The notes below the pieces were generated by a model. That model did no database searches and was not told the origin of the DNA. It saw only the letters and a program-made list of their open reading frames with translations. A stretch of DNA of 64,000 bases from contig CAZFTJ010000003.1 of assembly GCA_964521865.1 (NCBI GenBank), positions 183,745 through 247,744 of the forward strand, given 5' to 3'. This DNA is from an uncultured Spirochaetota bacterium. Its GTDB lineage: Bacteria; Spirochaetota; B62-G9; DRHN01. The translations under genes were made by a program, and so were the position numbers. Within the stretch, counting starts at the first letter, position 1. Each line of letters starts with the position of its first letter. Positions 7,816 through 36,013 of the stretch are shown piece by piece.

Positions 7816-8874
7816 TCAGCATATACGGGGAAGCTGGTTTCCCACCGGCATGGTAATAATTCTGCTCGTACCGTAGGGTGTTTTCATGGTGAGACGTCCC
7901 GCCCCCTCATGGATCTCACCGATTTTCACGCTGCCTCTTCCCTCTTCAACGCTTCTCATCGCCTCAAGACATATCCGTGCCTTGCTTCCCGGCACAATTA
8001 CGATCATCTTTCCTTCGTTCGCCATCTGCAGCGGATCGAGACCGAGAATATCACAGAGACCCTGCACATCCTCATCGACCGGCAGTGCCTCCTCATCGAG
8101 TGCTATGGCGCATTCTGCACTTTCTGCAAGCTCGCAGAGAACCGCTGCGACTCCTCCCCTCGTCGGGTCGCGCGCACATTTGACCTCCGGCACAGCTTCG
8201 ATCACGGCCTGCATGAGATCGGAGAGAGGAGCACAGTCCGATCGTATGTCCGCCCCAAGTGAAAGATCGTTTCGTACGCTCAATATCGACGCCTCATGGT
8301 TGCCGATCGCCCCGCTTATTATAACTGCATCTCCTTCCGCTATCCGTGACGGTGAAAGCTCGACACCGGGCCGTACAACTCCCACTCCTGCGGTCGATAT
8401 GTATATGCCGTCGCCCCTGCCCTTTTCGACAACCTTCGTATCACCCGTTATGAGAGGGACGGGCACGCTGTCTGCGGTCTTTTTTATCGATACAAGCACC
8501 CTTTCGAGATCCCGGACCGGAAAACCCTCCTCGATGATCAGCCCGACGGACAGGGCGACCGGCAAAGCGCCTACAGCGGCGAGGTCGTTCACTGTTCCGC
8601 ATACGGAGAGCCTGCCGATATCTCCACCCGGAAAAAAGAGCGGAGTCACGACGAAGCTGTCGGTCGTCATAACCATTCTCGGCTGTTCTTCTGCAGTGGA
8701 ACCTCTCGAAATTCTTTCCACGGTCCTTCCGGCCCCTGCCGGGATATCGATACGTGAAGCATCCTCCATCCGATCCAGGGCCGGGTTGTCGAATGTGGAG
8801 ACGATGCCCTCGACGAGGCTTCTTGCCATACGGCCGCCGCCCCCATGTGTAAGCAGAATTCTCTCTACGCTCAT
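7816..8874 (-). CDS. hypE: [NiFe]-hydrogenase maturation protein HypE
   Basis: Ends in the characteristic C-terminal PRIC; AIR-synthase-like fold. Start placed at the ATG (MSVERILLTHGGGG) that follows GGAGGAGG; the longer track ORF begins at a non-ATG codon. Confidence 0.9.
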   Translation of the reverse strand: MSVERILLTHGGGGRMARSLVEGIVSTFDNPALDRMEDASRIDIPAGAGRTVERISRGSTAEEQPRMVMTTDSFVVTPLFFPGGDIGRLSVCGTVNDLAAVGALPVALSVGLIIEEGFPVRDLERVLVSIKKTADSVPVPLITGDTKVVEKGRGDGIYISTAGVGVVRPGVELSPSRIAEGDAVIISGAIGNHEASILSVRNDLSLGADIRSDCAPLSDLMQAVIEAVPEVKCARDPTRGGVAAVLCELAESAECAIALDEEALPVDEDVQGLCDILGLDPLQMANEGKMIVIVPGSKARICLEAMRSVEEGRGSVKIGEIHEGAGRLTMKTPYGTSRIITMPVGNQLPRIC

Positions 8875-9018
8875 ACCCCTCCTCCATTCTCCCGAAATTT
8901 GATGTTTAAATATTCTAATGTGGCTGTGAAAAAAAGAGAGCGGCAGCATGCCTTACGCATGATTTTAGGAGGCTTTTCCCGGATTATGAGGCGAACCCCG
9001 GGGATACGCACTGCCCGT

Positions 9019-10104
9019 TTAATCGCTTCGTCCGTATTTGTAGTATGCGGCACAGGACCCCTCCGAAGAAACCATACACGGCCCGACGGGATTCTCGGAC
9101 GTGCACCTTTTACCGAACAGTGCGCATTCCGGCGGAATTATTACTCCCCTGAGCACATCCGAGCATCTGCACCCCTTCGGATCGGGGCTTTCGACAAGAC
9201 GCAGCCCGAAATGCGCCAGCGCCTCGAGGTGGGTAAACTCTTCACGAAGTCTGAGACCGCTTTTCGGTATTTTCCCGATGCCGCGCCATTCGGCGTCTGT
9301 CGGTTCGAATACCCGATCCATCACATCGAGAGCGCGCACGTTTCCCTTCTCGGAGACCGCCCTTTTGTAGGTATTGGCGACGCCCGCCTCTCCCCTTGAC
9401 ACCCGACGTACGATTTCAAAGACAGCCGTCAGAATATCTACAGGCTCAAACCCGCCGACAACGCACGGCACATGAAACCGGTCGGCAATCGGTCTGTACG
9501 CGTCCCAGCCGATAATAACGCTCACATGACCGGGACATAAAAACCCGTCTATCCGTGTGTCATCACTGAGACACAGCGCCTCGAGCGCCGGTATTACCAG
9601 GCGGTTTGCGGCTATAAAGAACAGATTTTTTATACCTCGCTTTTCAGCTTCCAGAATGGATAGTGCGATCCCGGGAGTAGTAGTCTCAAATCCGACACTG
9701 ACAAACACGAACTCCCTGTCCTTTTCGGACGAAGCCATGTCCAGCAGTTCGTACGTCGAGTAGACGACGCGAACATCGGCACCCTCGGCCTTTATCTGTT
9801 CGAGGCTTCTCCCCGAGCCGGGAACACGCATCATATCTCCGAATGTCGCAACAGCAACATTCGAAAGCGCGGCCAGATCGAGCGCTGCATTTATAATCGA
9901 CGAGGGTGTAACGCAGACCGGACACCCCGGTCCTGAAATAAGCAAAAGCCCGTCCGGAAAAAGACCTCTGAGACCGTAGCGGGCGATCGCCATCGTATGG
10001 GTGCCGCAGACCTCCATGATCCTGACCGTGCCGCCCGGATAGATATCGCGTATCTTGCGCTCCAGCGTCTTTACGAGCTCCCTGTCCCTGTACGGTTCGT
10101 TCAC
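9019..10104 (-). CDS. hypD: [NiFe]-hydrogenase maturation protein HypD
   Basis: 361 aa with the HypD motifs CGTH and GPGCPVC. GTG start overlaps the hypC stop (GTGA), suggesting translational coupling. Confidence 0.92.
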   Translation of the reverse strand: MNEPYRDRELVKTLERKIRDIYPGGTVRIMEVCGTHTMAIARYGLRGLFPDGLLLISGPGCPVCVTPSSIINAALDLAALSNVAVATFGDMMRVPGSGRSLEQIKAEGADVRVVYSTYELLDMASSEKDREFVFVSVGFETTTPGIALSILEAEKRGIKNLFFIAANRLVIPALEALCLSDDTRIDGFLCPGHVSVIIGWDAYRPIADRFHVPCVVGGFEPVDILTAVFEIVRRVSRGEAGVANTYKRAVSEKGNVRALDVMDRVFEPTDAEWRGIGKIPKSGLRLREEFTHLEALAHFGLRLVESPDPKGCRCSDVLRGVIIPPECALFGKRCTSENPVGPCMVSSEGSCAAYYKYGRSD

Positions 10105-10328
10105 CGGCCTTCCTCCGGACGAAGCAGTTCCTCGAGCAGAGCGCGCGTTTCGAGCGCCTCCTGCTCATCGACGATCTGTATGGCGAATCCGGCATGGAGC
10201 AGAACATAATCTCCCACTTTTGCTTCCGGAACCAGATGAAAACCGGTATTGACTTTGATCCCGCTCATATCCACAACACCGGTCAATCCCTCTTTGCGTA
10301 TTATCTTTCCCGTTACTGCAAGACACAT
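10101..10328 (-). CDS. hypC: [NiFe]-hydrogenase maturation chaperone HypC
   Basis: 75 aa beginning MCLA (the conserved Cys2 N-terminus). Overlaps the hypF stop by 1 nt and the hypD start by 4 nt. Confidence 0.88.
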   Translation of the reverse strand: MCLAVTGKIIRKEGLTGVVDMSGIKVNTGFHLVPEAKVGDYVLLHAGFAIQIVDEQEALETRALLEELLRPEEGR

Positions 10329-12634
10329 TATCCCCTACCCCTTCCGCATCGTGCACGAGCGACGATACCCTGTCCGAATGCAATACCGCCGTCGTTCGGC
10401 GGCAGTAATCTGTGAATGAGCACTGAAAACCCGTTTTCCGACAGCATGCGCCGTAATGACTTCAGAACCGTACGGTTCTGAAACACTCCGCCGCTCAGCG
10501 CTACGGTGCCGATGCCTGTTTTTTCCCGAAGGCGCCGGCATACATCGACACCAGATAATATAACAGCGGCATGAAACTTTTGTGATATTAAAATGGGAGA
10601 AAGTTGGGCCCGTATGTCGTCGACGATCCCCCTGATTGCCGGCTCAAAATGTACATTCATCTCCGCATCCATATAATAGGAGTATGCGTCCTCACGTGAT
10701 ACGGGTAGAGATTCAGAAGCCCCTCCGGCCTTTTCAAGAAGCACTGCCCCCTGCGCATCGTATGACGGTCTGGAACAGAGTAAAATCATCGCTGACACCG
10801 CATCAAACAGCCTTCCACAGGACGACGTGGTCGGGCAGTTGACCCCCGAGCGTATCATCTTCTCCAGCAGGAAAAGCCTGCTTTTGTCGTACCTTTCAAT
10901 AAACGGAAAATCCGGGATATTCGATACAGAACCGAAGGCCTGAAGCAGGTACGATACCGCCATGCGGTCGGTTTCAGTAATCGCCTTTTCCCCGCCCGGC
11001 ATGGGAACAGGGAAGTATCGTGCGGCCCTGCTGAAATCCGCCCGCGTTGCAATGAGAAACTCACCGCCCCATATCGTGTTATCCGTACCGAATCCCGTCC
11101 CATCGAGTGCTATACCGATCACGGCAGCATTAACACCTGCCTCGCCGAGCACACCTGCTATATGCGCATGATGGTGCTGAACGCGCTCAAGCGGTATGCC
11201 TCGATCCGAGGCCGCACTCTCCGCAAGACGGGTGCTGATATACTCGGGGTGCATGTCGCAGACGAGTATTTCAGGTTCCACCCGAAGCATGCTCAAAAAA
11301 TCCTGAATACCTGCTAAAAAGGCGTCGACACTCGTGGTGTTGTTGAGATCGCCTATATGGTGGCTGACATAGGCCATCCCCTCCCTGAAAACACAGAAGG
11401 TATTTTTCTCATTCGGGCCGAAAGCAAGCAAAGCCCTGTCAGGCGGGCCTGCCGGTATGGCTTTCGGCACATACCCGCGGGACCTCCGCACCGGCACGGG
11501 AACCTCATCGCTCACGAAAAATACAGAATCGTCGCAGGGGCGCTGTATCTCCCTGTTGTGAACGAGAAAAGCATCCGCAATGCCGTCAAGCTCCTTAAAT
11601 GCCTCTGCATCCCGGTAAACGAGCGGTTCCTCGGATATATTCGCACTCGTCATTATAAGTATTTCAGGCCCTTTCCTCAGAAGAATATGATGCAGGGGTG
11701 TGTAGGGCAGCATAATACCGACGTAGTCCGTATCTGGTGCAATCTCTTCGGGCAGGTTGTTTTTTCTTCCCCTGAGCAGGACTATTGGCCGTTCAAAACC
11801 CCCTAGCAGGGCCTCTTCCCGCTCCCCGACGACGCAGTACTTTTTTACCGTACGCATATCCCGGGCCATCAGCGCAAAGGGTTTGGCGGGCCTTCGCTTC
11901 TTCTTCCGAAGGCGTACCACCCATTCCGATTTTGCAGGTGAAACCGCCATATGGTATCCGCCGAGACCTTTGACCGCAATGATGCGCCCCTGTCTTAACA
12001 TCGAAACTGCAGCGCCTATCGGATCGCCTTCCACAACCGACCCCGCAGCTGTTTTCAGTACAAGGCCCGGTCCGCATACAGGACATGCATTCGGCTGTGC
12101 GTGATACCGACGGTCGAGGGGATTCTCGTATTCGGCCGTACAGTCGTGGCACATCGTGAAATTACTCATCGTCGTATTTTTTCTGTCGTACGGAATAGAC
12201 CGTACGATCGTGAAACGAGGTCCGCAGTCCGTACAGTTGGTAAAGGGGTAGAAATACCTTCTGTTTTTCGGATCGAATATCTCCTCGAGGCAGCTGTCGC
12301 AGGTAGCAATGTCCGGAGAGATCGGAGTAAAACCCCCTCCTTCCACGGCGCTCCCGACTATATTGAGGCTCCTGAATCCGTGCGGTTTTTTATACTCGAT
12401 AGAGCTTTCGTGTATGTGAGCACGTACAGGGGGATTTTTCAAAACGTCTCTGTAGAATTGTTCGATATTTCGTTTTGAACCGTCAAGCTCGATGCACACG
12501 CCTGTTTCTGTGTTTCTGATTATCCCCCTGAGACGGTAGTAACGGGCTTTTCTATACGTAAGCGGCCGAAATCCCACCCCCTGTACGATGCCCTTATACC
12601 AGATAACGGCACCGGTTGTCCCGGTATTTTCCAT
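10328..12634 (-). CDS. hypF: Carbamoyltransferase HypF
   Basis: 768 aa. N-terminal acylphosphatase-like region, two CxxC-x18-CxxC zinc-finger pairs (CDSC...CTDCGPR; CHDC...CPVCGP), then YrdC-like and Kae1-like regions. Confidence 0.92.
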   Translation of the reverse strand: MENTGTTGAVIWYKGIVQGVGFRPLTYRKARYYRLRGIIRNTETGVCIELDGSKRNIEQFYRDVLKNPPVRAHIHESSIEYKKPHGFRSLNIVGSAVEGGGFTPISPDIATCDSCLEEIFDPKNRRYFYPFTNCTDCGPRFTIVRSIPYDRKNTTMSNFTMCHDCTAEYENPLDRRYHAQPNACPVCGPGLVLKTAAGSVVEGDPIGAAVSMLRQGRIIAVKGLGGYHMAVSPAKSEWVVRLRKKKRRPAKPFALMARDMRTVKKYCVVGEREEALLGGFERPIVLLRGRKNNLPEEIAPDTDYVGIMLPYTPLHHILLRKGPEILIMTSANISEEPLVYRDAEAFKELDGIADAFLVHNREIQRPCDDSVFFVSDEVPVPVRRSRGYVPKAIPAGPPDRALLAFGPNEKNTFCVFREGMAYVSHHIGDLNNTTSVDAFLAGIQDFLSMLRVEPEILVCDMHPEYISTRLAESAASDRGIPLERVQHHHAHIAGVLGEAGVNAAVIGIALDGTGFGTDNTIWGGEFLIATRADFSRAARYFPVPMPGGEKAITETDRMAVSYLLQAFGSVSNIPDFPFIERYDKSRLFLLEKMIRSGVNCPTTSSCGRLFDAVSAMILLCSRPSYDAQGAVLLEKAGGASESLPVSREDAYSYYMDAEMNVHFEPAIRGIVDDIRAQLSPILISQKFHAAVILSGVDVCRRLREKTGIGTVALSGGVFQNRTVLKSLRRMLSENGFSVLIHRLLPPNDGGIAFGQGIVARARCGRGRG

Positions 12635-12637
12635 ACG

Positions 12638-13279
12638 TTACAGCCTGTCGATGATCCATCCAAGGAGTTTGTCGAAGCCCTCTCCGGTTGCTGAGGAAAC
12701 CGGGATACTGGCGGATGAAGGGTTGACTTTGTGGAGCCTCTTTTCGAAGTTTTCGAGCCTGAAATCGGTGTTCGACTGCATATCTATTTTATTCACTACA
12801 ACGAGGTCTGCGGTTCTGTACATCGTAGGATATTTCTCCGGCTTATCGTCTCCCTCAGTGATGCTCGCGACGATTATTCTTCCGCTCTCACCAAGATCGA
12901 AGCCCGACGGGCAGACCAGGTTTCCGACATTCTCGATAAACAGCAGCGCAATATTGTCGAGCTCGATCGTATCGAGAGCCGATCTCACCATGGCTGCATC
13001 CAGATGGCACGCCCCGTTTGTATTGATCTGCGCGGACTGCACACCTGTTTTCGAGATTCTCTCGGCGTCATGCGAGGTGGCAAGGTCGCCTTCGATCACG
13101 GCGGCCTTCATCCGGGGGGGCAGCATCGGGACAAGCCGTTCAAGCATTGCGGTCTTTCCTGCACCGGGCGACCCCATGACATTCCAGCATGTGATCTTCC
13201 TGTTATGCAACATATTCCTGATATCCCGCGCAAGAAGATCGTTTGCCTGCAGAATATCGCTCATGACATTTACCTTCAT
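12638..13279 (-). CDS. hypB: Hydrogenase nickel-incorporation GTPase HypB
   Basis: P-loop GSPGAGKT and a GTPase/metal-binding region (ENVGNLVCP). Start placed at the ATG (MKVNVMSD) preceded by AAAGGA; the track ORF extends to a TTG at 13360. No His-rich or CxxCGC N-terminal metal site. Confidence 0.82.
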   Translation of the reverse strand: MKVNVMSDILQANDLLARDIRNMLHNRKITCWNVMGSPGAGKTAMLERLVPMLPPRMKAAVIEGDLATSHDAERISKTGVQSAQINTNGACHLDAAMVRSALDTIELDNIALLFIENVGNLVCPSGFDLGESGRIIVASITEGDDKPEKYPTMYRTADLVVVNKIDMQSNTDFRLENFEKRLHKVNPSSASIPVSSATGEGFDKLLGWIIDRL

Positions 13280-13471
13280 GAATTCATCCTTTCTTGATGT
13301 AATGCCGCCGTCAGGCAGCTTGTTTTCCGCGATACATAAGCGGTGGTTATGTCTGCTCAACTGGATTTATTATACGGCTCGAAGAGACGCATAACAAATC
13401 AGGTGTTTACACCGGCGGTGTTATAATGAATACGACCATTGAAATATCCGGCGAACCGCGGATTGATCCCG

Positions 13472-13714
13472 TCAGTCGCCTTCGAACGAGAGAACCTGAA
13501 GCTCAGACCCCCCGGACTCCTCTATGCTGATGTGAGCCCCCTCGGAAATCGTGTCTTTGGAGAGCACATCGAATGCAAAGAGAAGCGCATCGGCTAACAC
13601 ACCGGAGTACTTTCCGATTTTCAGGTTGATTTTCGAAATCTTCTGCATGCCCTCCTCTTCAGCCCGCCGGTGTATCATCTTCAGCAGCTCTTCCGTAATT
13701 GAAAGCTCATGCAT
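13472..13714 (-). CDS. hypA: HypA-like nickel metallochaperone, short form lacking the zinc-finger region
   Basis: Starts MHELSI (HypA N-terminal Ni-site motif) and stays colinear with HypA for about 80 aa, then stops (…LQVLSFEGD). Contains no cysteine at all and no CxxC pairs. A GTG at 13738 is an alternative start. Confidence 0.6.
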   Translation of the reverse strand: MHELSITEELLKMIHRRAEEEGMQKISKINLKIGKYSGVLADALLFAFDVLSKDTISEGAHISIEESGGSELQVLSFEGD

Positions 13715-13800
13715 GAACTGTGCCCGTGGCTGCCCCACATGAAGGGTTTCCTGCCCCCCGCAACATGCGTTTATCGTTCTGAGGGCGAGGATTATCTTTT

Positions 13801-16277: not shown

Positions 16278-16987
16278 TGAAAGAACAAAAGATCACAATA
16301 ATCATCGACGGTAAAGAAATCGAGGCGGTTTTCGGCCAGTCTATCATGCAGGCGGCCGATGCAGCGGGAATCTATATCCCGCGCCTCTGCTATCACAAAG
16401 ACCTGATTCCGGCCGGACACTGTCGGGTATGCACGGTAAAAGTCAATGGAAAACCGACAAATGCCTGTTCAATGCCTGCTGCAGACGGCATGGTCATTGA
16501 AAATGAAACTCCCGAATTGAACGAGGAGCGTCGGCATATAATAGAGATGCTCTTTGTGGAAGGGAATCACTTCTGCCCGTTCTGCGAAAAGAGCGGAGAC
16601 TGCGAACTGCAGGCGCTTGCGTATCGATTGGGCATGCTCACCCCGAGATACACGTATCAGTACAAGCATGTCGAAGTCGATGCAACACATCCGGATGTCT
16701 ACATCGATCGTGAGCGCTGTGTTCTCTGCGGCAGATGCGTGCGGGCATCGCGTGATATCGACGGGAAGGACGTGTTCGGATTTGTCGGACGCGGTATAAA
16801 CAAGCGAATTGCCGTGAATTCAAAGGGTGACCGATTATCCGATACAGAGCTTGCGGCAGCCGACAAAGCGGCTTCAATCTGCCCGACCGGCTGTATCGTC
16901 ATCAAACGTGTCGGCTATGCCAAGCCGTTCGGCACACGGTTGTATGACACGCAACCCATCGGCTCGGATATTCAGAAGACTCCGTAA
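16274..16987 (+). CDS. hoxU: Hydrogenase diaphorase iron-sulfur subunit HoxU (NuoG N-terminal-like)
   Basis: 237 aa with a 2Fe-2S ferredoxin-type N-terminus (CYHKDL...GHCRVC...C) and 4Fe-4S cysteine clusters (CPFCEKSGDC; CVLCGRC). Start overlaps the hoxF stop. Confidence 0.85.
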   Translation: MMKEQKITIIIDGKEIEAVFGQSIMQAADAAGIYIPRLCYHKDLIPAGHCRVCTVKVNGKPTNACSMPAADGMVIENETPELNEERRHIIEMLFVEGNHFCPFCEKSGDCELQALAYRLGMLTPRYTYQYKHVEVDATHPDVYIDRERCVLCGRCVRASRDIDGKDVFGFVGRGINKRIAVNSKGDRLSDTELAAADKAASICPTGCIVIKRVGYAKPFGTRLYDTQPIGSDIQKTP

Positions 16988-17013
16988 AAAATCTTAATTC
17001 TGAGGAAGGAAAA

Positions 17014-17553
17014 ATGGCCAAACCAAAAGTAGCGACAACACATATGACGGGGTGCTTTGGCTGTCACATGTCTCTCCTCGATATCGATGAAAAGATACTC
17101 GATCTGATTGAGCTTGTGGATTTCGACAAATCACCCATAGACGATATAAAGCAGTTTACGGGCACTGTTGATATCGGCCTGATCGAGGGAGGATGCTCCA
17201 CTCAGGAAAATGTTGAAGTGCTTCGTTCTTTTCGCAAGCACTGCAAAATTCTTATAGCAGTCGGAGAATGCGCCAATACCGGAGGTGTTCCACACCTGCG
17301 CAACATGATTCCCCTCAAAGAGTGCATGGAGGAAGCGTATCTCAACGGTCCGTCCGTCGTCGACGGCGTCATACCGAACGATCCCGATATTCCGCTCATT
17401 CTGGACAAGGTCTATCCCGTCCACGAAGTGGTAAAGATCGACTACTGGCTGCCGGGCTGTCCTCCCAGAGCGGAAACTTTCTGGGCCGCATTAACGGCTC
17501 TGCTTAAAGGCGAAGAACCGAAGCTGCCGTACGAGCTCATCAAATACGATTAA
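17014..17553 (+). CDS. hoxY: [NiFe]-hydrogenase small subunit HoxY
   Basis: 179 aa with the proximal-cluster cysteine pattern (GCFGC...GEC...GCPP); position between hoxU and hoxH. Confidence 0.85.
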   Translation: MAKPKVATTHMTGCFGCHMSLLDIDEKILDLIELVDFDKSPIDDIKQFTGTVDIGLIEGGCSTQENVEVLRSFRKHCKILIAVGECANTGGVPHLRNMIPLKECMEEAYLNGPSVVDGVIPNDPDIPLILDKVYPVHEVVKIDYWLPGCPPRAETFWAALTALLKGEEPKLPYELIKYD

Positions 17554-17573
17554 TTTCATGGAGGCGTTTAAAT

Positions 17574-19016
17574 ATGGCTTCTGAGACAAAAGCACGAAAG
17601 ATCGTCATCAATCCGGTGACACGGATTGAAGGACATGCCAAGGTAACAATAAGGCTTGATGAAAACGGGAAAGTCGACAGGGCGAGGATGCATATTGTGG
17701 AGTTTCGCGGTTTTGAACGCTTTGTGCGCGGTCGTCTTTATTGGGAAGCACCGGTCATCGTACAGCGTCTGTGCGGGATATGTCCGGTCAGCCACCTGCT
17801 CTGCGCATCGAAGGCAATGGATGTCATCGTCGGAGCGGATAGACTGACACCGACCGCTGAGAAGATGAGGAGGCTTTTGCACATGGGGCAGGTGTACCAG
17901 TCCCATTCACTGCATTTCTTCCACCTCAGCGCACCCGATCTGCTCCTCGGGTACGATGCAGACCCTGTAATCAGGAACGTCATCGGACTTGCAAAGAAGA
18001 ACACAGATCTCGCCGTGCAGGCGGTTATGATGCGGAAGTACGGCCAGGAAGTGATCAAAGCAACCGCAGGCAAGAAGATACACGGCAACGGATCGATTCC
18101 CGGCGGCATGAATAAGAACCTGTCGATCGAAGAACGGGATGCCCTGCTCGAGGATGTCGACCGGATGATCGACTGGGCACAGGGTGGTCTTGATCTATAC
18201 AAGAAACTTTACCGCGACGACACCGCTCGTCTGAGCAAGCTCGGCTCATTTGAGTCGAATTTTGTCAGTATCGTCCGGGAGGATGGAGCGCTCGACATGT
18301 ATGACGGCAAGCTCAGGGCGAAAGATCCTGACGGCAACCTGATTTTCGATATGGTCGAGCCGAAAGACTATTTAAAGTACATACGGGAAGGGGTGAGAAA
18401 CTGGAGCTACATGAAATTCCCGTTCATTTACTCGCTCGGTCAGGAGAAGGGCTGGTACCGCGTCGGTCCGCTCGCACGGCTGAACAACTGCGATTTCATC
18501 ACGACCCCGAAGGCCGAGAAGGAGCGTCGGGAGTTTATGGAGCTCGGAGGCGGCAGGCCTGTCCATTCAACCATGGCCTATCACTGGGCACGGCTGATTG
18601 AAACCCTGTATGCGGCTGAAAGAATAAAGGAGCTTCTGAACGATCCGGACCTGCAGGGAGATGATCTCGTCGTGAGCGGCGAAAGGAGAAACGAGGGAAT
18701 AGCCATCATCGAGGCGCCGAGGGGCACCCTGTTCCATCACTATCGGGTGGATGACACGGATCAGATCACCATGGCGAATCTCATCGTTTCGACCACGAGC
18801 AACAATCAGCCGATGAATGAGGCGGTGCGCGTCGTTGCAGAGGATCATATTGCCGGTAGAGAGGTTACGGAACCGCTGTTGAACCTCGTTGAGGTTGCGA
18901 TACGGGCCTATGACCCCTGCCTGAGCTGTGCCACCCATGCAATCGGTCGGATGCCTCTTATCGTGACCCTGGAAGACGAAGGCGGCGCCGTGATCGATAG
19001 AAAAGTGCGGGATTGA
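17574..19016 (+). CDS. hoxH: [NiFe]-hydrogenase large subunit HoxH
   Basis: N-terminal RLCGICPVSH (RxCGxCxxxH) and C-terminal DPCLSCATHA (DPCxxCxxH) Ni-Fe ligand motifs; a 25-residue tail follows the His, as expected for a protease-processed precursor. Confidence 0.92.
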   Translation: MASETKARKIVINPVTRIEGHAKVTIRLDENGKVDRARMHIVEFRGFERFVRGRLYWEAPVIVQRLCGICPVSHLLCASKAMDVIVGADRLTPTAEKMRRLLHMGQVYQSHSLHFFHLSAPDLLLGYDADPVIRNVIGLAKKNTDLAVQAVMMRKYGQEVIKATAGKKIHGNGSIPGGMNKNLSIEERDALLEDVDRMIDWAQGGLDLYKKLYRDDTARLSKLGSFESNFVSIVREDGALDMYDGKLRAKDPDGNLIFDMVEPKDYLKYIREGVRNWSYMKFPFIYSLGQEKGWYRVGPLARLNNCDFITTPKAEKERREFMELGGGRPVHSTMAYHWARLIETLYAAERIKELLNDPDLQGDDLVVSGERRNEGIAIIEAPRGTLFHHYRVDDTDQITMANLIVSTTSNNQPMNEAVRVVAEDHIAGREVTEPLLNLVEVAIRAYDPCLSCATHAIGRMPLIVTLEDEGGAVIDRKVRD

Positions 19017-19020
19017 CCGG

Positions 19021-19863
19021 GTGGACTGTAAATCTGTGCTGATATACGGATACGGGAACCCGGGACGTCAGGACGACGGCCTGGGCCCGGCGATGGTAGA
19101 GCAGATAGAGCGTCTCGGCTTCGGCTTTGTGGAGACGGATGCGAACTATCAGCTGAGTATTGAGGATGCCGCTGAAATGGCGGCGCACGACTTTGTCGTT
19201 CTCATAGATACGACGGTTCAGGATGTCGACTGTTTTTCAATCCGTAAGGTGCTGCCTGCTTCCGCTATCACCTTCACCAGTCATCTTGTCGACCCTGAAT
19301 CCATCGTGGCCCTGTGCGATGATGCATTCGGCAGGGTGCCCGATGTATGGATTATTGGCATCAGGGGATACGAGTTCGAGTTCACAGAGGGCTTTACCGA
19401 AAGGGCACAGAAGAACTACCGGAAGGCGTTTGTTTTTATAACTCAACTATTACGTATATATGGGGAAAGAATTATGGCGACCACGAAAAACGAGGAAAAA
19501 ACAGTATTAATTATTGATGACGATGCCGATATCAGGGCCTCGATACGGATAGTGTTGGAGGCTGCCGGTTTTTCAGTCGGAGAGGCGGGGGACGGAGAAG
19601 AGGGCTTGAAAGTCGCCCAGAAGGTCAATCCGGAGGCAGTCATTGTCGATCTGATGATGGAAACGGTCGATGCGGGCAGCAGGGTATCGGCAAAGCTGAA
19701 AGAATCTGGGTTCAAGGGACCGATCTACCTGCTCAGCGCTGCCGGGGATACGGTCCGCTACAACATCGATGCCAAGGACCTCGGCCTCGACGGTATTTTC
19801 CAGAAGCCGATCAACCACGAGGTCCTCATCAGCACGCTGAAGACGAAGCTCAATATCAAATAA
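19021..19863 (+). CDS. hoxW: Hydrogenase maturation endopeptidase HoxW continuing in frame into a CheY-like receiver (REC) domain
   Basis: Residues 1-150 carry protease motifs (GYGNPGRQDDGLG; conserved Asp in VVLIDT; His in TSHLVD). With no stop codon, the frame continues into a complete REC domain from ATG 19474 (LIIDDDADIR, VIVDLMME, LLSA, FQKP). GGGGAAAGA lies just upstream of 19474, so independent initiation of the REC part is also possible. Confidence 0.7.
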   Translation: MDCKSVLIYGYGNPGRQDDGLGPAMVEQIERLGFGFVETDANYQLSIEDAAEMAAHDFVVLIDTTVQDVDCFSIRKVLPASAITFTSHLVDPESIVALCDDAFGRVPDVWIIGIRGYEFEFTEGFTERAQKNYRKAFVFITQLLRIYGERIMATTKNEEKTVLIIDDDADIRASIRIVLEAAGFSVGEAGDGEEGLKVAQKVNPEAVIVDLMMETVDAGSRVSAKLKESGFKGPIYLLSAAGDTVRYNIDAKDLGLDGIFQKPINHEVLISTLKTKLNIK

Positions 19864-20208: not shown

Positions 20209-21945
20209 ATGAAGTTCAAAACATTCATCGTCATTTTTATCGCACTGGCAATGATTTTTTCAGTGCAGGCCGTCTTTGCCGGCGGCAAGAAGAAAGAGGA
20301 GGCTGCTCCCGCAGCAGCTCCTGCCGAGGAAAAGGCCGCACCGGCCGAAAAGGAGAAGGCTCCTGAAAAAAAGGAGGCTCCCGTACCAGCGCAGGTACTG
20401 GTATTCGGCAGCAGCGGCGATGCAGCCCGGTTGGATCCTGGAGATGTGACGGACGGAGAGTCCATCCAGAGAATGGACAACATTTTTGAAGGCCTGGTTG
20501 AATACAAGGAAGGCTCCACAGAAATACAACCGGCCCTGGCTACTTCATGGGAAACGTCTGCAGACGGCAAAGAAATTACCTTTCACCTGAGGAAGGGAGT
20601 AAAGTTCCACGACGGGACCGATTTCAATGCAGATGCCGTTGTATTCTCCTTTGCCAGACAGTACGATCCGCACCATCCCTACCATCAGTACGGAGAATGG
20701 GCATACTGGGGATATATGTTCTATGATGTGGACAGAATGGAGAAGATCGACGATTATACGGTAAAACTGGTGCTTAAGAATGTCAATGCTTCGATAATGA
20801 CAAGCCTCGCAATGTTCACAACGGCTATTGTAAGCCCGACCAATGCCGAGAAATACAAGGGCGATGCCTTCAAGCATCCCTGCGGGACAGGCCCCTTCAA
20901 ATTCGTCGAATGGGTAAAGGATGACCACATCACCCTCGAGGCGAACGACAACTATTGGCGGAAAAGGCCCAAACTCGACAAGTTGATCTTCAAGGTTATC
21001 CCCGATCCTTCCGCCAGGCTTCTGGCGCTGGAGGTCGGCGAAGTCCAGGGCATAGAATATCCGAATCCTGCCGATTTCGAACGAATAAAATCCAATAAAA
21101 ATCTCAAACTGCTTACAGCTCCGGGAATGAATATCGGATACATGGCCATGAATGCCGGGTACGGATATAACGACGCCAATGAAAACGGCATACGCGATGC
21201 GGATGAACCGCTTGTCAAGACTCCCGGATATTATGAGCCCCTTACCAAGAAAAAGGTGAGACAGGCTATCAACTACGCTATTGATAAAAAGTCAATCGTG
21301 GATAATATCTACATGGGAACCGCAATAGTGGCAAAGAACGGAATGCCGCCGTTTATGCTTGGATACAACAATGATATCAAGGATTATCCCTACGACCCCC
21401 AAAAGGCAAAACAGCTTCTTGCGGAAGCCGGGTATCCGAACGGATTTGAAGTTACCCTGTACGTCATGCCGGTATCACGACCCTATATGTTCGACCCACC
21501 GAAGATCGGAGAAGCGATTCAGAGTTATCTTGCTGCCGTCGGCATCAAGGTGAAATTCTACCAGGTGGACTGGGGGACCTATCTGCAGGAAACTGAGGCC
21601 GGAAAGCATCAGATGTGTCTTCTCGGATGGACAGGCGACAACGGCGACCCCGATAATTTTATGAACGTCCTGTACGGCGCAAACGCCTGTTCGATAGGGA
21701 AAGCCGGCAACTACGGCTTCTATACCGACGAAAAAACCCAGGAGCTTCTTACCGCGGCGCTGCAGACCTACGATGTGAAGAAAAGGGCAGAGTACTATAA
21801 GGAAGCGCAGGTACGAATACATGAAAGTGCGAACTGGGTATATATCGCTCATTCCAATCAGAATGTGGTGTTCAGGTCGAATGTGCAGGGATATGTGCTG
21901 CATCCCACATCGAGAAAGTTCTTCTACCCTGTGTGGATAAAGTAA
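20209..21945 (+). CDS. ABC transporter substrate-binding protein, Opp/Dpp/Nik family (cluster 5)
   Basis: 578 aa; signal peptide (MKFKTFIVIFIALAMIFSVQAVFA), a 45-aa Ala/Pro/Glu/Lys-rich linker, then the large bilobed binding-protein architecture. Followed by two permeases and two ATPases. Substrate (nickel vs peptide) cannot be read from sequence alone. Confidence 0.85.
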   Translation: MKFKTFIVIFIALAMIFSVQAVFAGGKKKEEAAPAAAPAEEKAAPAEKEKAPEKKEAPVPAQVLVFGSSGDAARLDPGDVTDGESIQRMDNIFEGLVEYKEGSTEIQPALATSWETSADGKEITFHLRKGVKFHDGTDFNADAVVFSFARQYDPHHPYHQYGEWAYWGYMFYDVDRMEKIDDYTVKLVLKNVNASIMTSLAMFTTAIVSPTNAEKYKGDAFKHPCGTGPFKFVEWVKDDHITLEANDNYWRKRPKLDKLIFKVIPDPSARLLALEVGEVQGIEYPNPADFERIKSNKNLKLLTAPGMNIGYMAMNAGYGYNDANENGIRDADEPLVKTPGYYEPLTKKKVRQAINYAIDKKSIVDNIYMGTAIVAKNGMPPFMLGYNNDIKDYPYDPQKAKQLLAEAGYPNGFEVTLYVMPVSRPYMFDPPKIGEAIQSYLAAVGIKVKFYQVDWGTYLQETEAGKHQMCLLGWTGDNGDPDNFMNVLYGANACSIGKAGNYGFYTDEKTQELLTAALQTYDVKKRAEYYKEAQVRIHESANWVYIAHSNQNVVFRSNVQGYVLHPTSRKFFYPVWIK

Positions 21946-21972
21946 GATAACCGTACTGTGCATAATCTATTC

Positions 21973-22003
21973 GCCGGCAAAGGGGACGCTGTCCTTTTGC
22001 CGG
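21973..22003 (+). terminator. Imperfect stem-loop between the binding-protein and permease genes (possible intra-operon attenuator)
   Basis: GCCGGCAAAGGGGAC-gct-GTCCTTTTGCCGG, about 12 bp stem with one bulge. No T-run directly after it, but a T8 run lies at about 22055. Confidence 0.3.
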
Positions 22004-22128
22004 TGAAATTATGAATGAGAGGCCTCATCCGAAGATAAAAAATGTGTCCGGGAGGGCACTTTTTTTTATTAAAAGTATTGATGAGAGACAGCTTTAAAAA
22101 ATGGACTGAATAAGACTGGTGTCGATAC

Positions 22129-23133: not shown

Positions 23134-23143
23134 ACCCAACGCC

Positions 23144-33012: not shown

Positions 33013-35490
33013 TTATTCCCGCGCCGTTTGAAAAGGCCACATCTTGAGCCCGCCTTCAAGTATTCGAATATTCGTGAACCCCTGTGCCTTGAGAATAAGC
33101 GACGCCTGATAGGACCTGCTTCCAGTCTCGTCGATCAGTATAATACCACGGTCGCGGGGTATCTCATCTATTCTTCTCCTCAGGCTTTCGAGGGGAATGA
33201 GCTCGACTCCCGGAATTCGCTCCTCCTCGAATTCACGCGGAAGCCGCACGTCGATACAGGTGCAGGTCTTTTTTGCCTCTATAACTTCCCGTGCATCCAT
33301 TGCCATGATTCCCTCAAACACACCGTCGAGCTTATTCTGCATGACATGTGCTGCGACAATAATACTGTCGATGGCCCTGGAGTATGAAGGCGCATACCCG
33401 AGATCGAGAGATGCAATATCGTCTATTATACCGTCATTGGCGATAACGGTCGACGCAACGTCAATCCTCTTGGCCACATCACCTTTGCCGACTATCTGAA
33501 CCCCGAGCAGCTTCCTCGTTTTTTTATCACCAATCATCTTGACGTGTATCATCTGCGATTCAGGGATAAACTCATCCCTGTCGAAATCGGGAACATATAC
33601 CGTCACCGGATGGAATCCCGCTTTACTGGCCTCTTGCTCGTTCAACCCCGTCTTCGCGATATGGAATTCAAAAACCCTGATAATGATTGTACCGGTAACG
33701 GCGGGGAAAATCGCTTTCTTTCCCGCCGCATTCGTACCGGCCACCCTCCCCTGCTTGTTTGCAATCGAACCGAGAGGAATATAACAGGGTTTTTTAGATA
33801 CTGCATGAACCACCTCACAGCAGTCACCGGCTGCATAGATGGATGCATCGCTTGTCTGCAACCGCTCGTTAACGGCAATCGCACCCGTGGAGCCGATTTT
33901 CAGCCCGGCCTTTTTCGCAAGCGTAACACTCGGTACAAATCCTGTTGCAATAATAACGAGATCAGCCGGAAGGCGGAACCCGTCAAGCTGGACCGATTCA
34001 ACACCTTCTGTTCCAATAAATTCCTGGACTTCGGTATTCGTTATAATTCGTACACCGTTGAGCTCCAGATGGTTGCGCACGAGGGCTCCCATTTCACGGT
34101 CGAGAAAGGGCAGAATCTCATGATCTTTCTCAACAATTGTTACACGCGCTCCGGATGCGGTCAGCGCTTCTGCGGTTTCAATGCCAATATTACCGCCTCC
34201 AAGCACAACGATATCCTTTGCAAGATTGTTGGTAAGGAAACGTTTTATTCTTTCGGAATCGGTTACACCGTGCAGCACGAAGATATTCTGCAATCCAATA
34301 CCCCTGATATCGGGAAGAGACGGTCTGCTTCCAGTCGAGATAATAAGAATGTCGTAGGGTTCGGTAAAGACCCGTTCTGTGAGAATATCGCGGTAGTGTA
34401 TTACCTTCTCTTCCCTGTCTATCTTTATCACTTCAGAGAGGTTCTTTATCTCTATACCCTTCACACTCCTGAAAAACTCCGTCGCATTCTCAAATCCAGA
34501 GTAGAACCCGAACAGCTCACGCTGCTGCTTCAGCTTTCCGGCGATATAGTACGGAAGTGCACATCCCGCATATGCAAGAAAATGGTCCTTTTCAAAAACG
34601 GTGATCTTTGCCTCCGGGTCGAGCCTCCGCGCACGTGAAGCCGCTTTCGGCCCCGCGGCGACGCCGCCTATGACAACGATTCGCTTTTTAAACCGTTTTT
34701 TCGATTCATCGACCTTTTCCGTTTCTGCAACACGAACCAGCGGAAGCGTAAAGATGAACGCAGTTCCTTCGTTCAGCCTGCTCTCAACCCGTATCGAGCC
34801 GCCGCATATCTCTATGATCTTTTTAACGATTGTAAGGCCGAACCCGGTCCCTTTTTTGTCGAAGAGACGTGCATTTTCGGCTCTAAAAAATTCTTCGAAA
34901 ATTTTATCGCTCACTTCAGCGGGTATGCCGATACCGTTGTCTTCAACGCGTGTAACGATTTCACCCGTATCTTCGCTGTACTGTACAGTAAGTATGACGT
35001 GACCTTCGCGGGATGTATACTTTAGGGCATTCTCAAGGAGATTGTACACGGTATGTTTCAGTCCGACTCTGTTCCCCAGAACGATCAGGAGCTTGTTGGG
35101 AATATCACTGACAAAATGAATGCTCTTTTCCCTGATTTTTTCTCTCAACTCGTCCACCGCTTCGATACAAATTTCGGAAAAATCCACCTCCAGGAGCTCG
35201 ACCTCGCCGCTTCGAAAGCGTTCGAGCTCCAGGATGTCCATGATAAGATCCTGCAGGTCCCTGCTCCCTCTCTTTATCGACTCCACAACACGAAGCTGTT
35301 TGTTGTTCAGCTTTCCTGCATACTCGCCGAGCAGGGTTTCTACACTGAAAATTATGGTCGCAATGGGAGATTTCAACTGATGAGCGCTGATCCTGAGATA
35401 CTCCCTGCGGTCCCGAAGAAGCCGTTCGACCTCCTCCCTGTACCGCTGGACCTGCTTTTCAAGATCGTTTATTTTTTCTTCAGCAGACAT
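33013..35490 (-). CDS. Histidine kinase core (HisKA + HATPase_c) fused to a CoA-disulfide-reductase/NADH-oxidase-like flavoprotein and a C-terminal rhodanese-like domain
   Basis: 825 aa. Residues 1-245: coiled coil, H-box (SAHQLKSPIATI), N/G boxes (NLLENALKYT, DNGIGIP, GTGFGL). Residues 250-700: FAD/NAD Rossmann motifs (IVVIGGVAAGPKAASRARR; VVLGGGNIGIETAEAL) with the redox cysteine in AGCALPYY. Residues 730-825: rhodanese fold whose catalytic-Cys position reads Asp (ILIDETGSRS). No transmembrane segment. Confidence 0.75.
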   Translation of the reverse strand: MSAEEKINDLEKQVQRYREEVERLLRDRREYLRISAHQLKSPIATIIFSVETLLGEYAGKLNNKQLRVVESIKRGSRDLQDLIMDILELERFRSGEVELLEVDFSEICIEAVDELREKIREKSIHFVSDIPNKLLIVLGNRVGLKHTVYNLLENALKYTSREGHVILTVQYSEDTGEIVTRVEDNGIGIPAEVSDKIFEEFFRAENARLFDKKGTGFGLTIVKKIIEICGGSIRVESRLNEGTAFIFTLPLVRVAETEKVDESKKRFKKRIVVIGGVAAGPKAASRARRLDPEAKITVFEKDHFLAYAGCALPYYIAGKLKQQRELFGFYSGFENATEFFRSVKGIEIKNLSEVIKIDREEKVIHYRDILTERVFTEPYDILIISTGSRPSLPDIRGIGLQNIFVLHGVTDSERIKRFLTNNLAKDIVVLGGGNIGIETAEALTASGARVTIVEKDHEILPFLDREMGALVRNHLELNGVRIITNTEVQEFIGTEGVESVQLDGFRLPADLVIIATGFVPSVTLAKKAGLKIGSTGAIAVNERLQTSDASIYAAGDCCEVVHAVSKKPCYIPLGSIANKQGRVAGTNAAGKKAIFPAVTGTIIIRVFEFHIAKTGLNEQEASKAGFHPVTVYVPDFDRDEFIPESQMIHVKMIGDKKTRKLLGVQIVGKGDVAKRIDVASTVIANDGIIDDIASLDLGYAPSYSRAIDSIIVAAHVMQNKLDGVFEGIMAMDAREVIEAKKTCTCIDVRLPREFEEERIPGVELIPLESLRRRIDEIPRDRGIILIDETGSRSYQASLILKAQGFTNIRILEGGLKMWPFQTARE

Positions 35491-35602: not shown

Positions 35603-36013
35603 TCAGTCGAGGTCGAACGAAAAAAAGGAGGGAAGCGCCATGTGCACTCCCTTCTGCCCGCCTATTCTGTTCGTCAGGTCCCGCAATACCTTCTCTTCCC
35701 CCCGCACCACTATAACTTCCATGCAGTAATCATGCGTTATATGAACATGATTGGCAAAGTGTATAGACTGCTGATAGTGATGCTGAATTTCCGTGAGAGC
35801 CTCTGAAAGATTGTGCATATGATGATTATAAATTATGGTAATCGAGCCCATTACCTGCCCCGTTTTTTCGCTCTTTTCAAGAGATAGCTTTTCCCTTATG
35901 AGATCCCGAATAGCCTCACTGCGGTTGTGAAAACCGTGCGCAGCAATGAAGTCATCAAAGGATGAAAGCAGGTTTTTTTCCATGGATACACCAAACCGAA
36001 TAAGCTCAGACAT
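35603..36013 (-). CDS. nikR: Nickel-responsive transcriptional regulator NikR
   Basis: 136 aa. N-terminal ribbon-helix-helix (FHNRSEAIRDLIRE) and C-terminal metal-binding domain with the NikR His/Cys pattern (HHMH...HVHITHDYC). Confidence 0.82.
   Translation of the reverse strand: MSELIRFGVSMEKNLLSSFDDFIAAHGFHNRSEAIRDLIREKLSLEKSEKTGQVMGSITIIYNHHMHNLSEALTEIQHHYQQSIHFANHVHITHDYCMEVIVVRGEEKVLRDLTNRIGGQKGVHMALPSFFSFDLD

Follow-up and report, generated by a model that had tools for sequence, protein, structure and literature searches.

Can a hydrogenase maturation protease carry a CheY-like receiver domain and, if so, what would the receiver do there? The question arises from a gene at 19021..19863 (plus strand) of the analyzed 64,000-nt stretch of DNA, referred to here as the window. 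The initial annotation had described a HoxW/HycI-type endopeptidase that runs without an intervening stop codon into a receiver. The gene, hoxW-REC, is indeed a single ORF with a GTG start and a TAA stop, encoding 280 aa. Both the ORF listing and the raw sequence of 19021..19863 were free of internal stops, and the same single frame was found in independent assemblies. Hence, the fusion is genuine and conserved. It may place hydrogenase maturation, or the use of the enzyme, under the control of a sensor kinase after translation. The reading that we prefer, with a probability of about 0.45, is that phosphorylation gates the processing of HoxH by HoxW-REC.

The hox operon and the two domains of its fused gene

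The fused gene lies at the 3' end of a plus-strand hox operon, its GTG start following the hoxH stop codon after 4 nt. Upstream are a hoxE-F fusion (14454-16277; Pfam 2Fe-2S_thioredx, Complex1_51K and NADH_4Fe-4S), hoxU (16274-16987; Fer2_4 and NADH-G_4Fe-4S_3), the small subunit gene hoxY (17014-17553; Oxidored_q6) and hoxH (17574..19016; PF00374), encoding the [NiFe] large subunit of 480 aa. The hoxEF-U-Y-H order was repeated in related loci spanning that stretch. The best PDB match of HoxH was 5xf9_D of an NAD-reducing hydrogenase (E 2e-170), and Pfam placed diaphorase domains within 14454-16987; by this match and the diaphorase genes, the operon is predicted to encode a group 3d-type NAD-linked [NiFe] hydrogenase (HoxEFUYH). 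The maturation genes hypA-B-F-C-D-E (7816..13738, minus strand) are divergent from the hox operon, namely hypA (13472-13738; Pfam HypA), hypB (12638-13360; cobW/HypB), hypF (10328-12634; HypF domains), hypC (10101-10328; the ORF begins MCLAVTGK), hypD (9019-10104; HypD) and hypE (7816-8949; AIRS). An Rfam scan of the whole window gave no match, neither to the NiCo riboswitch nor to any other.

HoxH ends with DPCLSCATH and a tail of 25 residues, AIGRMPLIVTLEDEGGAVIDRKVRD (nt 18939-19013). Thus, the substrate expected in the initial annotation, i.e., a HoxH with a 25-residue tail after its DPCxxCxxH motif, is present. Of 40 relatives, 39 had a conserved tail of 24-25 aa in their full-length HoxH, while that of the remaining one (L040) aligned shorter.

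A domain search of the 280-aa product, as the initial annotation had proposed, returned two models. The N-terminal part (aa 1-150; 19021..19470, plus strand; motif GYGNPGRQDDGLGP) matched NCBIfam TIGR00072 'hydrogenase maturation protease' over aa 7-142 with 50.2 bits (cut-off 47.45). Pfam HycI (PF01750) gave no match to the 280-aa product at E<0.01, and the domain is therefore regarded as divergent; its identity to Escherichia coli HybD and HycI and to Thermococcus kodakarensis HycI (1cfz, 2kml, 5zby) is only about 18-20%. The fold is nevertheless the same. In the AlphaFold2 (AF2) model, pLDDT was mostly above 90 across aa 11-150, which form a HybD-type alpha/beta fold, and Foldseek matched HycI 5zby, HybD 1cfz and peptidase 5ttx, all with a probability of 1.00 and a target-normalized TM of 0.69-0.72. 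Since a PDB search with the protease domain as a single sequence gave a marginal match only, a profile of 33 sequences was needed for the PDB alignment. In this alignment, the predicted Ni ligands D19, D63 and H88 fall on E16, D62 and H93 of HybD, its metal ligands, and the three residues did not vary among 119 fused and 15 stand-alone relatives. The domain is thus assigned to the MEROPS A31 / TIGR00072 family (HybD/HycI/HoxW) as a complete endopeptidase, as first described, and Ni-dependent cleavage is predicted for it. HybD and HycI, which lack a signalling domain, act on enzymes of groups 1 and 4. Closer in setting are HoxW of Cupriavidus necator H16 (PHG092) and of cyanobacteria, members of the TIGR00072 superfamily encoded 3' of hoxH in NAD-linked Hox operons and acting on a large subunit with a 24-25-aa tail after DPCxxCxxH; these HoxW proteins consist of the protease alone (about 150-190 aa), whereas here a receiver is fused or comes from an overlapping gene.

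The C-terminal part (aa 161-275; 19501..19845, plus strand) is a CheY-like receiver, matching Pfam PF00072 Response_reg over aa 162-273 with 69.2 bits (cut-off 30.2). All motifs quoted in the initial annotation were recovered, i.e., the acidic pocket IIDDD (D166/D167/D168), the phospho-acceptor D210 in VIVDLMM, S239 in LLSA and K262-P263 in FQKP. AF2 predicted a (beta/alpha)5 fold with strands and helices alternating over aa 161-276, and Foldseek matched it to PhoP, RR468 and Spo0F (target-normalized TM 0.85-0.91). Both domains are complete and look competent, the protease for catalysis and the receiver for phosphorylation. Conservation within the protein peaks in the receiver, with a mean column identity of 0.81 compared to 0.65 for the protease, which implies a conserved partner surface.

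Two features of the receiver could indicate a structural or pseudo-receiver that is never phosphorylated and may, e.g., dock pre-HoxH or Hyp proteins. The alpha4 helix is shorter than usual, with a family-specific conserved loop, GDxVRYNxDxxxLGLxG, in its place, and the residue three positions before Lys262, which we take to correspond in CheY numbering to the aromatic switch residue of CheY, is Ile259 and not aromatic. However, pseudo-receivers normally lose the residue set for phospho-chemistry, and here D166/D167, D210, S239 and K262 were invariant across 119 homologues. Together with the enrichment of kinases next to the operon described below, this makes a pseudo-receiver very improbable.

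The single-chain AF2 model consisted of two confident domains whose mutual placement was not confident (pTM 0.58), with pLDDT below 50 at linker residues 155-157; it gave no confident autoinhibitory or other inter-domain interface.

Fused, split and variant loci

The search of other genomes for such fusions, suggested in the initial annotation, was productive. More than 118 full-length homologues with 53-91% identity were obtained from independent assemblies, and each of the best 120 homologues had a length of 255-307 aa at a coverage of at least 93%. All family members come from metagenome-assembled genomes or metagenomes. In 33 genome loci, from Spirochaetota, Hydrogenedentota and Nitrospirales metagenome-assembled genomes, the fusion was present as one ORF directly 3' of hoxEF-U-Y-H. 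Since the window, too, derives from a metagenome-assembled contig, and split versions of the gene are one homopolymer base away, two genes could in principle have been merged in this contig by a lost stop codon or a frameshift. The closest relatives (L001, L002, P0002 and P0003; 88-91% identity), uncultured Spirochaetota among them, share the frame, as do more than 100 other sequences from different assemblers, and all of these retain the junction peptide in frame. A lost stop codon is rejected because of these many independent full-length homologues, and we consider an assembly or sequencing artefact extremely unlikely.

Sixteen related loci, about one third, contained hoxW and the receiver as separate, mostly overlapping genes. 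At most split junctions, the receiver gene overlapped the hoxW stop codon (ATGA or ATGGATAG), while in L020 a single in-frame stop separated the two. Fused and split states interleave in a HoxH tree, and frame changes at the boundary are small between relatives (GGGAAAAAC in L023 compared to GGGAAAAAAC in L045). Programmed frameshifting or readthrough joining the split and fused forms was considered and is at most speculative, the offset needed being +1 and not -1 in most split loci. A-runs and in-frame TGA/TAG junctions (L020, L065) had prompted this idea.

In three loci of one lineage (L058-L060), the receiver gene directly follows hoxH without hoxW in between, and HoxH still aligns through the tail region. 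In L067, hoxW and the receiver lie together on a contig without hoxH. The receivers of L049, L052 and L053 (39-42% identity, high-GC loci) were not accepted as members of the same orthologous family. One of these distant receivers is located upstream of hoxEF.

The domain boundary itself carries an internal translation start signal. A Shine-Dalgarno (SD)-like run, GGGGAAAG (19462-19469), precedes an in-frame ATG (Met152, 19474-19476; whole feature 19462..19476, plus strand), which corresponds to the start codon of the separate receiver gene in split loci. Met152 was kept in 118 of 119 fused proteins, while the rest of the linker was 42% conserved. The SD-like run was found 5' of the boundary ATG in all 34 fused loci inspected (34/34), with a median duplex energy of -8.1 kcal/mol compared to -3.3 kcal/mol at control positions. 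Thus, a free receiver of 129 aa is probably also translated. In L061, the NCBI gene call for the fused ORF covers the receiver product only.

Given the split loci, the internal SD and ATG, L058-L060 and L067, the receiver is, as judged from these gene arrangements, a conserved member of the Hox module that is often tethered to HoxW. The proposal that it was appended to the maturation step accordingly holds in part: the tether is frequent, and the receiver is separate in about one third of the loci and stands without hoxW in L058-L060. Given the internal start signal and the many split genes, the receiver is presumably functional as a polypeptide on its own, either instead of or in addition to the tethered form.

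These findings bear on the question of which form is the functional unit. A free response regulator of one domain, translated from the internal start or encoded by a split gene, could act on a target other than HoxW, possibly on the assembled HoxEFUYH as a phospho-dependent regulatory subunit at the position of C. necator hoxI. In that case, the fusion to HoxW would be an almost neutral by-product, brought about by the overlap of stop and start codons where the operon ends. The conserved start signal, the repeated toggling between fused and split states among close relatives, the loci with hoxH and the receiver but no hoxW, gene calls for the receiver alone, a conservation of the receiver far above that of the protease and the lack of a fixed inter-domain interface in AF2 all fit this explanation. 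On the other hand, the fused state predominates and persists in deep clades, to identities as low as 53%, and hoxW and the receiver are still paired away from hoxH in L067. Moreover, among 3127 representatives of the HoxW family, the fusion partner was always this one receiver family (of the best 150 representatives, one had the fused length). The tether would also drag a catalytic protease along, which is awkward for stoichiometric binding to a holoenzyme. On balance, we regard this explanation as rather unlikely, albeit a serious competitor to phosphorylation-gated processing of HoxH by the tethered protein.

Histidine kinases near the hox loci

Gating by phosphorylation would require a kinase. 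In 13 of about 45 loci, the first gene beside the operon encodes a histidine kinase. In L066, all genes lie on one strand in the order hoxEF-U-Y-H-W-REC-HK-hypABFCDE. Neighbour clustering was based on stop-to-stop ORFs, by which antisense ORFs were chained, and only the clearest clusters were interpreted.

In the window, the candidate is encoded at 33013..35490 (minus strand). According to Pfam, HisKA and HATPase_c are combined in this protein with a CoA-disulfide/persulfide-reductase-like flavoprotein and a rhodanese domain; PDB matches were NoxA-3 (6pfz; E 2e-130) and CoADR-RHD (3icr), and the usual active-site Cys of the rhodanese domain was not evident by eye. Directly upstream on the same strand is nikR (35603..36013; Pfam NikR_C), and the nikR-kinase pair also occurs in L005. 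The kinase gene and hoxW-REC are 13 kb apart in the window. Its orthologues lie 2.5 kb from the fused gene in L005 and 0.7 kb from it in L016, and in L085 the orthologue is convergent with, and immediately adjacent to, the fused hoxW-REC. No receiver gene lies beside the kinase gene in the window, and no other partner gene adjoins either the kinase or the receiver. A second kinase is encoded in the window at about 52879-53739. A metagenome scan with the flavoprotein kinase yielded generic kinases only (24-40% identity) and no orthologues. This undescribed HisKA/HATPase-CoADR-rhodanese family is probably a redox sensor, and the protein encoded at 33013-35490 is the most likely candidate for the cognate kinase in this genome.

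NtrB-like H-boxes were found in kinases of L038 and L062 and in the [FeFe]-hydrogenase-like ones of L014 and L018; these NtrB-like kinases may serve other regulators. Kinases of the [FeFe]-hydrogenase-like type in L014, L018 and L063, for which hydrogen would be the signal, were not taken as cognate kinases, their H-box being NtrB-like, unlike that of the in-operon and flavoprotein kinases.

The receiver has no output domain of its own, so it could also serve as an intermediate in a phosphorelay or as a sink for phosphate, in the manner of Spo0F or CheY2, without a direct effect on HoxW or the enzyme. The output of the kinase would then be a DNA-binding regulator of hox/hyp transcription. Besides the NtrB-like kinases beside some operons, hybrid kinases with their own receivers are neighbours of the operon in L010, L011 and L063, and Rex-like regulators are encoded close by in L064 and L065, as such a relay might have it. 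However, no Hpt protein or DNA-binding regulator was conserved in the neighbourhoods of the loci, and neither the strict position at the 3' end of the operon nor the repeated fusion to HoxW would be expected of a generic sink. A relay or sink is therefore quite unlikely.

Proposed control of HoxH maturation

The reading that phosphorylation gates the processing of HoxH is supported by the conservation of the fusion, the intact protease and receiver, the Rosetta-stone linkage between them and the neighbouring kinases. In this scheme, a sensor histidine kinase, here most likely the soluble flavoprotein kinase encoded at 33013-35490, would phosphorylate Asp210. Its sensor part resembles NAD(P)H-dependent CoA-disulfide/persulfide reductases. 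The state of the receiver might then permit or block the removal of the 25-residue tail from Ni-loaded pre-HoxH by HoxW, by analogy with CheB. As a consequence, the final, irreversible step, by which the NAD-linked hydrogenase is committed to assembly, would be tied to a redox or other signal. The free 129-aa receiver, as the second product, may compete for or pair with the tethered receiver. We infer the control of the cleavage step by the receiver, its phosphorylation, the identity of the kinase and the signal alike. A tentative, more specific version, which we think less likely to be true than false, combines phosphorylation-gated HoxH maturation with redox input from the flavoprotein kinase and a tuning of the response by the ratio of tethered to free receiver.

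Several observations stand against phosphorylation-gated processing: the loci L058-L060 without hoxW, the lack of a confident AF2 interface, the kinase distance of 13 kb and the NtrB-like neighbouring kinases. A gate acting purely in cis, moreover, would need neither the internal SD and ATG nor split genes.

In the methylesterase CheB, a receiver and a hydrolase share one polypeptide, and phosphorylation relieves or imposes inhibition of the hydrolase. CheB thus provides a precedent for a receiver-gated hydrolase, as a functional analogy and not as homology, since the catalytic domains are unrelated. The CheB receiver is N-terminal and packed on the active site, whereas that of HoxW-REC is C-terminal, behind a long helix and without a predicted interface. 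Hydrogen-sensing two-component systems dedicated to [NiFe] hydrogenases are HoxBC-HoxJ-HoxA and HupUV-HupT-HupR, in which the output of HoxJ-HoxA and HupT-HupR is transcription via NtrC-type DNA-binding regulators. Unlike HoxA and HupR, the receiver in the window lacks a DNA-binding domain and is joined to a maturation enzyme; therefore, any control that it exerts would have to be post-translational.

The initial annotation had also pointed to the position of hoxI. In C. necator, the gene order is hoxF-U-Y-H-W-I (PHG088-093), and HoxI serves as a regulatory subunit on the diaphorase, the site of NADPH activation (PMC3702609). The positional analogy stands, both being small accessory genes or gene parts 3' of hoxW at the end of a hox operon. 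It does not extend to the domain type: the C-terminal part of the window protein matched receiver models only, with no similarity to HoxI.

A search of the full-text literature yielded no description of a receiver-fused hydrogenase protease, in line with the initial annotation. To our knowledge, the characterized signalling control of [NiFe] hydrogenases is all transcriptional (HoxJ/HoxA, HupT/HupR, Rex, FNR), with the maturation endopeptidase seen as a final step that is constitutive and blind to signals. If true, phospho-gated maturation would be, as far as we know, the first post-translational signalling checkpoint on the assembly of a metallo-enzyme, and it would represent a new output class for two-component signalling. 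In this genome, its input would come from a histidine kinase not described before, with a CoA-disulfide/persulfide-reductase-like NAD(P)H flavoprotein sensor, and the NAD-linked hydrogenase would be matured according to the pyridine-nucleotide or thiol redox state. The coupling of receiver and protease, physical or translational, occurs in several phyla of anaerobic or micro-oxic uncultured bacteria with diverse flanking sensor kinases. This suggests that such bacteria may decide after translation whether a Ni-loaded precursor becomes active, or how the enzyme is used. The finding could also matter for the heterologous expression of Hox-type hydrogenases for cofactor regeneration, since the failure of a HoxW dependent on an activating signal would go unnoticed. 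Homologues of the fusion account for hundreds of database entries, annotated as a 'hydrogenase maturation protease' or as a 'response regulator' without further detail.

The hoxW-REC gene and its two domains

The hox operon of the window (hoxEF-hoxU-hoxY-hoxH-hoxW/REC; 14454-19863, + strand) lies divergent from hypA-B-F-C-D-E (7816-13738, - strand). Its first gene is a fusion of hoxE and hoxF (14454-16277, +; 607 aa) encoding a 2Fe-2S thioredoxin-like domain, a Nuo51 FMN domain and NADH_4Fe-4S; this fusion is common to all related loci covering that stretch. HoxH was most similar to 5xf9_D (E 2e-170), an NAD-reducing hydrogenase from Hydrogenophilus, and the enzyme is a group 3d-type soluble hydrogenase. 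The last gene, hoxW-REC (19021..19863, +), starts with GTG 4 nt past the hoxH stop. As the initial annotation had claimed, a HoxW-type protease is in frame with a receiver (REC) domain with no stop between them, in a single uninterrupted ORF of 280 aa. The sequence motifs quoted there were all found in the protein, and the tail ascribed to HoxH is exactly 25 residues long, counted past DPCLSCATH.

A domain search on the 280-aa product placed both domains above their cut-offs. TIGR00072 (NCBIfam, hydrogenase maturation protease) matched aa 7-142 with 50.2 bits, narrowly exceeding the curated cut-off of 47.45, and Response_reg (Pfam) matched aa 162-273 with 69.2 bits (cut-off 30.2). Since the Pfam HycI model gave no match to this protein, the protease domain is divergent. 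With 119 homologues as input, AlphaFold2 gave a model (mean pLDDT 87.4) that matched the solved maturation peptidases 5ttx, HycI (5zby) and HybD (1cfz) as well as many receivers (PhoP, RR468, Spo0F), all with a probability of 1.00. The relative placement of the two domains was not confident (pTM 0.58).

Conservation across 119 fused sequences was complete for the motif GxGNPGxxDDGxGP and for D19, D63 and H88. The three residues remained invariant once stand-alone relatives were added, and in a profile alignment they fall on the metal ligands E16, D62 and H93 of E. coli HybD. The receiver invariants were the acidic pair D166/D167, the phospho-acceptor D210, S239 and K262-P263. Mean column identity was highest for the receiver (0.81), followed by the protease (0.65) and the linker (0.42), and the receiver includes a family-specific stretch, GDxVRYNxDxxxLGLxGIFQKP, at the usual place of helix alpha4. 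Thus, judged by their conserved residues, both domains look functional.

Fused and split forms of the gene pair

Database searching with the full-length protein gave 829 clusters at E <= 1e-3, of which the top 120 were all 255-307 aa long, with a query coverage of at least 93% and identities of 53%-100%; the database names of the homologues were 'hydrogenase maturation protease' or 'response regulator' and nothing more. The best homologues came from JGI, ENA, NCBI and Logan assemblies, and such independent full-length proteins count against an artefact, which is very improbable. A HoxW-domain search of 1.84 billion representatives gave 3127 relatives, and only one of the 150 best had the fused length; therefore, the fusion represents one narrow protease clade. 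In a census with one genome per species, 49 loci encoded hoxW and REC parts, in every case directly 3' of hoxEF-U-Y-H wherever the upstream stretch was present. All are metagenome-assembled genomes, mostly of Spirochaetota but also of Hydrogenedentota, Nitrospirales, Phycisphaerae and Alphaproteobacteria; protease clade and operon are thus spread together over several phyla.

The two parts were fused in 33 of the 49 loci and split in 16. Thus, the proposal that a receiver was appended to the protease holds for the fused loci, which together with the database homologues extend it to other genomes, but not for the 16 in which the receiver is a separate gene. Most split loci have a hoxW stop that overlaps the SD-preceded ATG of a receiver gene of 123-133 aa, with junctions including ATGA and ATGGATAG; in L020 and in the additional locus L065, a single in-frame stop parts the genes. 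Split forms occurred in both short-read and long-read assemblies. The two states are intermingled in a neighbour-joining tree of HoxH: the split loci L045 and L046 lie within a fused clade, and L004/L036, L015/L020 and L010/L038 pair a fused with a split locus. The deep-branching Alphaproteobacteria and Phycisphaerae were split, as were several Hydrogenedentota and Nitrospirales loci. Fused and split junctions differ by small frame changes near the boundary (e.g., GGGAAAAAC in the fused L023 vs. GGGAAAAAAC in L045). By these comparisons, the fusion is one state of a conserved hoxW and REC gene pair. In one further locus (L057:1505-2265), the receiver was 95% identical and readable from the internal ATG only, while hoxW was truncated after residue 117, with the rest of the domain unaligned and the frame shifted; either hoxW is decaying here or the assembly is wrong.

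The domain boundary itself carries a candidate start codon. Met152 (ATG 19474-19476) was kept in 118 of 119 fused proteins amid poorly conserved surroundings, and a purine-rich SD-like run preceded the boundary ATG in 34 of 34 fused DNA loci (GGGGAAAG in the window, 19462-19469, +). The median predicted anti-SD pairing energy was -8.1 kcal/mol at the junctions vs. -3.3 at control positions taken in frame elsewhere in these genes, and 82% of junctions vs. 19% of these controls reached -6 or below. For L061, whose ORF is fused in the DNA, the NCBI annotation has just the receiver, starting at this ATG. Most simply read, the fused genes would also yield a free receiver, a candidate second translation product.

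Neighbouring histidine kinases

Of about 45 loci whose flanks were long enough, 13 had a histidine kinase as the first gene next to the operon; in L066 (Hydrogenedentes), one strand reads hoxEF-U-Y-H-W-REC-HK-hypA-B-F-C-D-E. Sensor architectures vary among these kinases. Membrane kinases with several N-terminal hydrophobic, apparently transmembrane segments (L040, L043, L048, L066), one matching the Pfam 6-TM PilS domain (L028), GAF-PAS hybrid kinases (L010, L011) and a HAMP kinase (L062) were found. Kinases fused to an [FeFe]-hydrogenase H-domain (Fe_hyd_lg_C, Fer4, HisKA, HATPase) are encoded at L018:1102-3156 and L014:743-2887 (both -), and adjacent gene fragments of a frameshifted assembly place such a domain beside a kinase at L063:9381-12850 (-). 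They immediately adjoin hoxEFUYHW-REC operons of Nitrospirales (L014 is labelled 'uncultured bacterium') and, for L063, of an unassigned metagenome contig; next to a [NiFe] hydrogenase, these kinases are putative sensors of H2.

The kinase of the window (33013-35490, -; 825 aa), beside nikR (35603-36013, -), is soluble. Its HisKA-HATPase part is followed by a CoA-disulfide/persulfide-reductase-like (or NADH-oxidase-like) flavoprotein and a rhodanese domain, which make up the C-terminal two thirds (best PDB match 6pfz, NoxA-3, E 2e-130). Read by eye, it has a reductase-type Cys motif (AGCALPYY), and no rhodanese active-site Cys was seen in the stretch IDETGSRS. This architecture occurred in more than 100 clusters of Spirochaetota and Planctomycetota, named 'FAD-dependent oxidoreductase' only, and a literature search found no description of such a kinase-flavoprotein fusion. 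In L085, whose fused protein is 66% identical to that of the window, a kinase of this type is convergent with the fused gene at 136 nt; the distance is 0.7 kb in L016 and 2.5 kb in L005, where nikR adjoins the kinase. Its H-box region (ISAHQLKSPIATI...LLGEYAGKLNNKQ) is similar to the one in the in-operon membrane kinases, so both classes are likely cognate to the receiver. The H-boxes of the [FeFe]-type and the L038 and L062 kinases are NtrB-like; their pairing with the receiver is therefore uncertain, and the [FeFe]-type kinases may serve a different regulator.

The hox operon is separated from nikR and the kinase by an Opp/Nik-type ABC transporter whose genes include an SBP_bac_5 binding protein (20209-25972, +) and which might import nickel, by single genes of the DJ-1/PfpI family (25994-26548, -) and of UPRTase-like type, and by a Bmp/PnrA-type ABC-transporter cluster (28049-32999, +). 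In L005 both transporter clusters are absent, and the UPRTase-like gene, kinase and nikR are close to the fusion; the two clusters were apparently inserted into a hox-kinase neighbourhood that is older than they are.

Partners and possible action of the receiver

Two exceptions indicate that the receiver belongs to the Hox module, with hoxW its closest, though not its sole, partner. In L058 (1455-3304), L059 and L060, from a microbial-mat/stromatolite lineage, a receiver gene (80% identical) lies directly 3' of hoxH with no hoxW between; HoxH aligns through the tail region nonetheless, and the protease is presumably encoded elsewhere. The two-gene unit of L067:270-1226 consists of hoxW (50% identity) and the receiver (72% identity), with no hoxH ahead; the 124 nt between them contain a perfect 13-bp hairpin (GCCTTACCCCCTA...TAGGGGGTAAGGC), which resembles a terminator or repeat element that was inserted there.

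A competent-looking protease and receiver, their fusion or translational coupling, neighbouring kinases and a maintained internal start were observed. Because of this Rosetta-stone relation, and since protein contacts are the only means of action for a receiver that lacks an output domain, we tentatively propose (probability about 0.45) that its phosphorylation state controls the action of HoxW on pre-HoxH, after the pattern of receiver control in CheB. The free receiver would be a second, modulating species. Since the sensor of the window kinase is a flavoprotein, the signal in this genome might be NAD(P)H or thiol/persulfide redox, which fits an enzyme exchanging electrons between H2 and NAD(P). 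However, the internal start and the split genes show that the receiver need not be tethered, L058-L060 have no adjacent hoxW, and the modeled domains have no confident mutual placement. The main rival is a free receiver acting on another target, with the fusion a tolerated by-product of overlapping genes, a reading we hold to be somewhat less likely than the control of HoxW. The free receiver might act on the holoenzyme and would then correspond functionally to HoxI, whose gene comes after hoxW in C. necator (PMC3702609). A relay or phosphate sink, or a pseudo-receiver, is less probable than either the control of HoxW or a free receiver with another target.

Any function of hoxW-REC is inferred wholly from uncultured organisms. 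Neither the two domain families nor this type of operon is new; what appears undescribed is the coupling of protease and receiver, and full-text literature searches found no description of a maturation protease with a receiver, in agreement with the initial annotation. The coupling would imply post-translational two-component control in hydrogenase biogenesis, likewise apparently undescribed; it would surprise specialists in hydrogenases or two-component systems, and the hypothesis is readily testable.

Further genes were observed around related operons. A more distant receiver (42% identical, ending ...GITAILEKPLDPQRLL...) lies immediately 5' of a hoxEF homologue in L049:2416-4681, so that another Hox-type operon may carry a receiver at its 5' end. 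In one Spirochaetaceae clade (L022-L024, L026, L029, L032, L045, L050), a gene for a protein of about 490 aa (CdhD-like domain, 4Fe-4S dicluster) overlaps the 3' end of the fused gene and is followed in six loci by a large M16 peptidase, a conserved cluster (e.g., L026:8774-10252 and 10742-13624). A gene for a Rex-like, redox-sensing repressor (Put_DNA-bind_N and CoA_binding) adjoins the operon in two split-form loci (L064:9495-10151, L065:3181-3843), which suggests transcriptional control by NADH/NAD+ alongside the receiver there.
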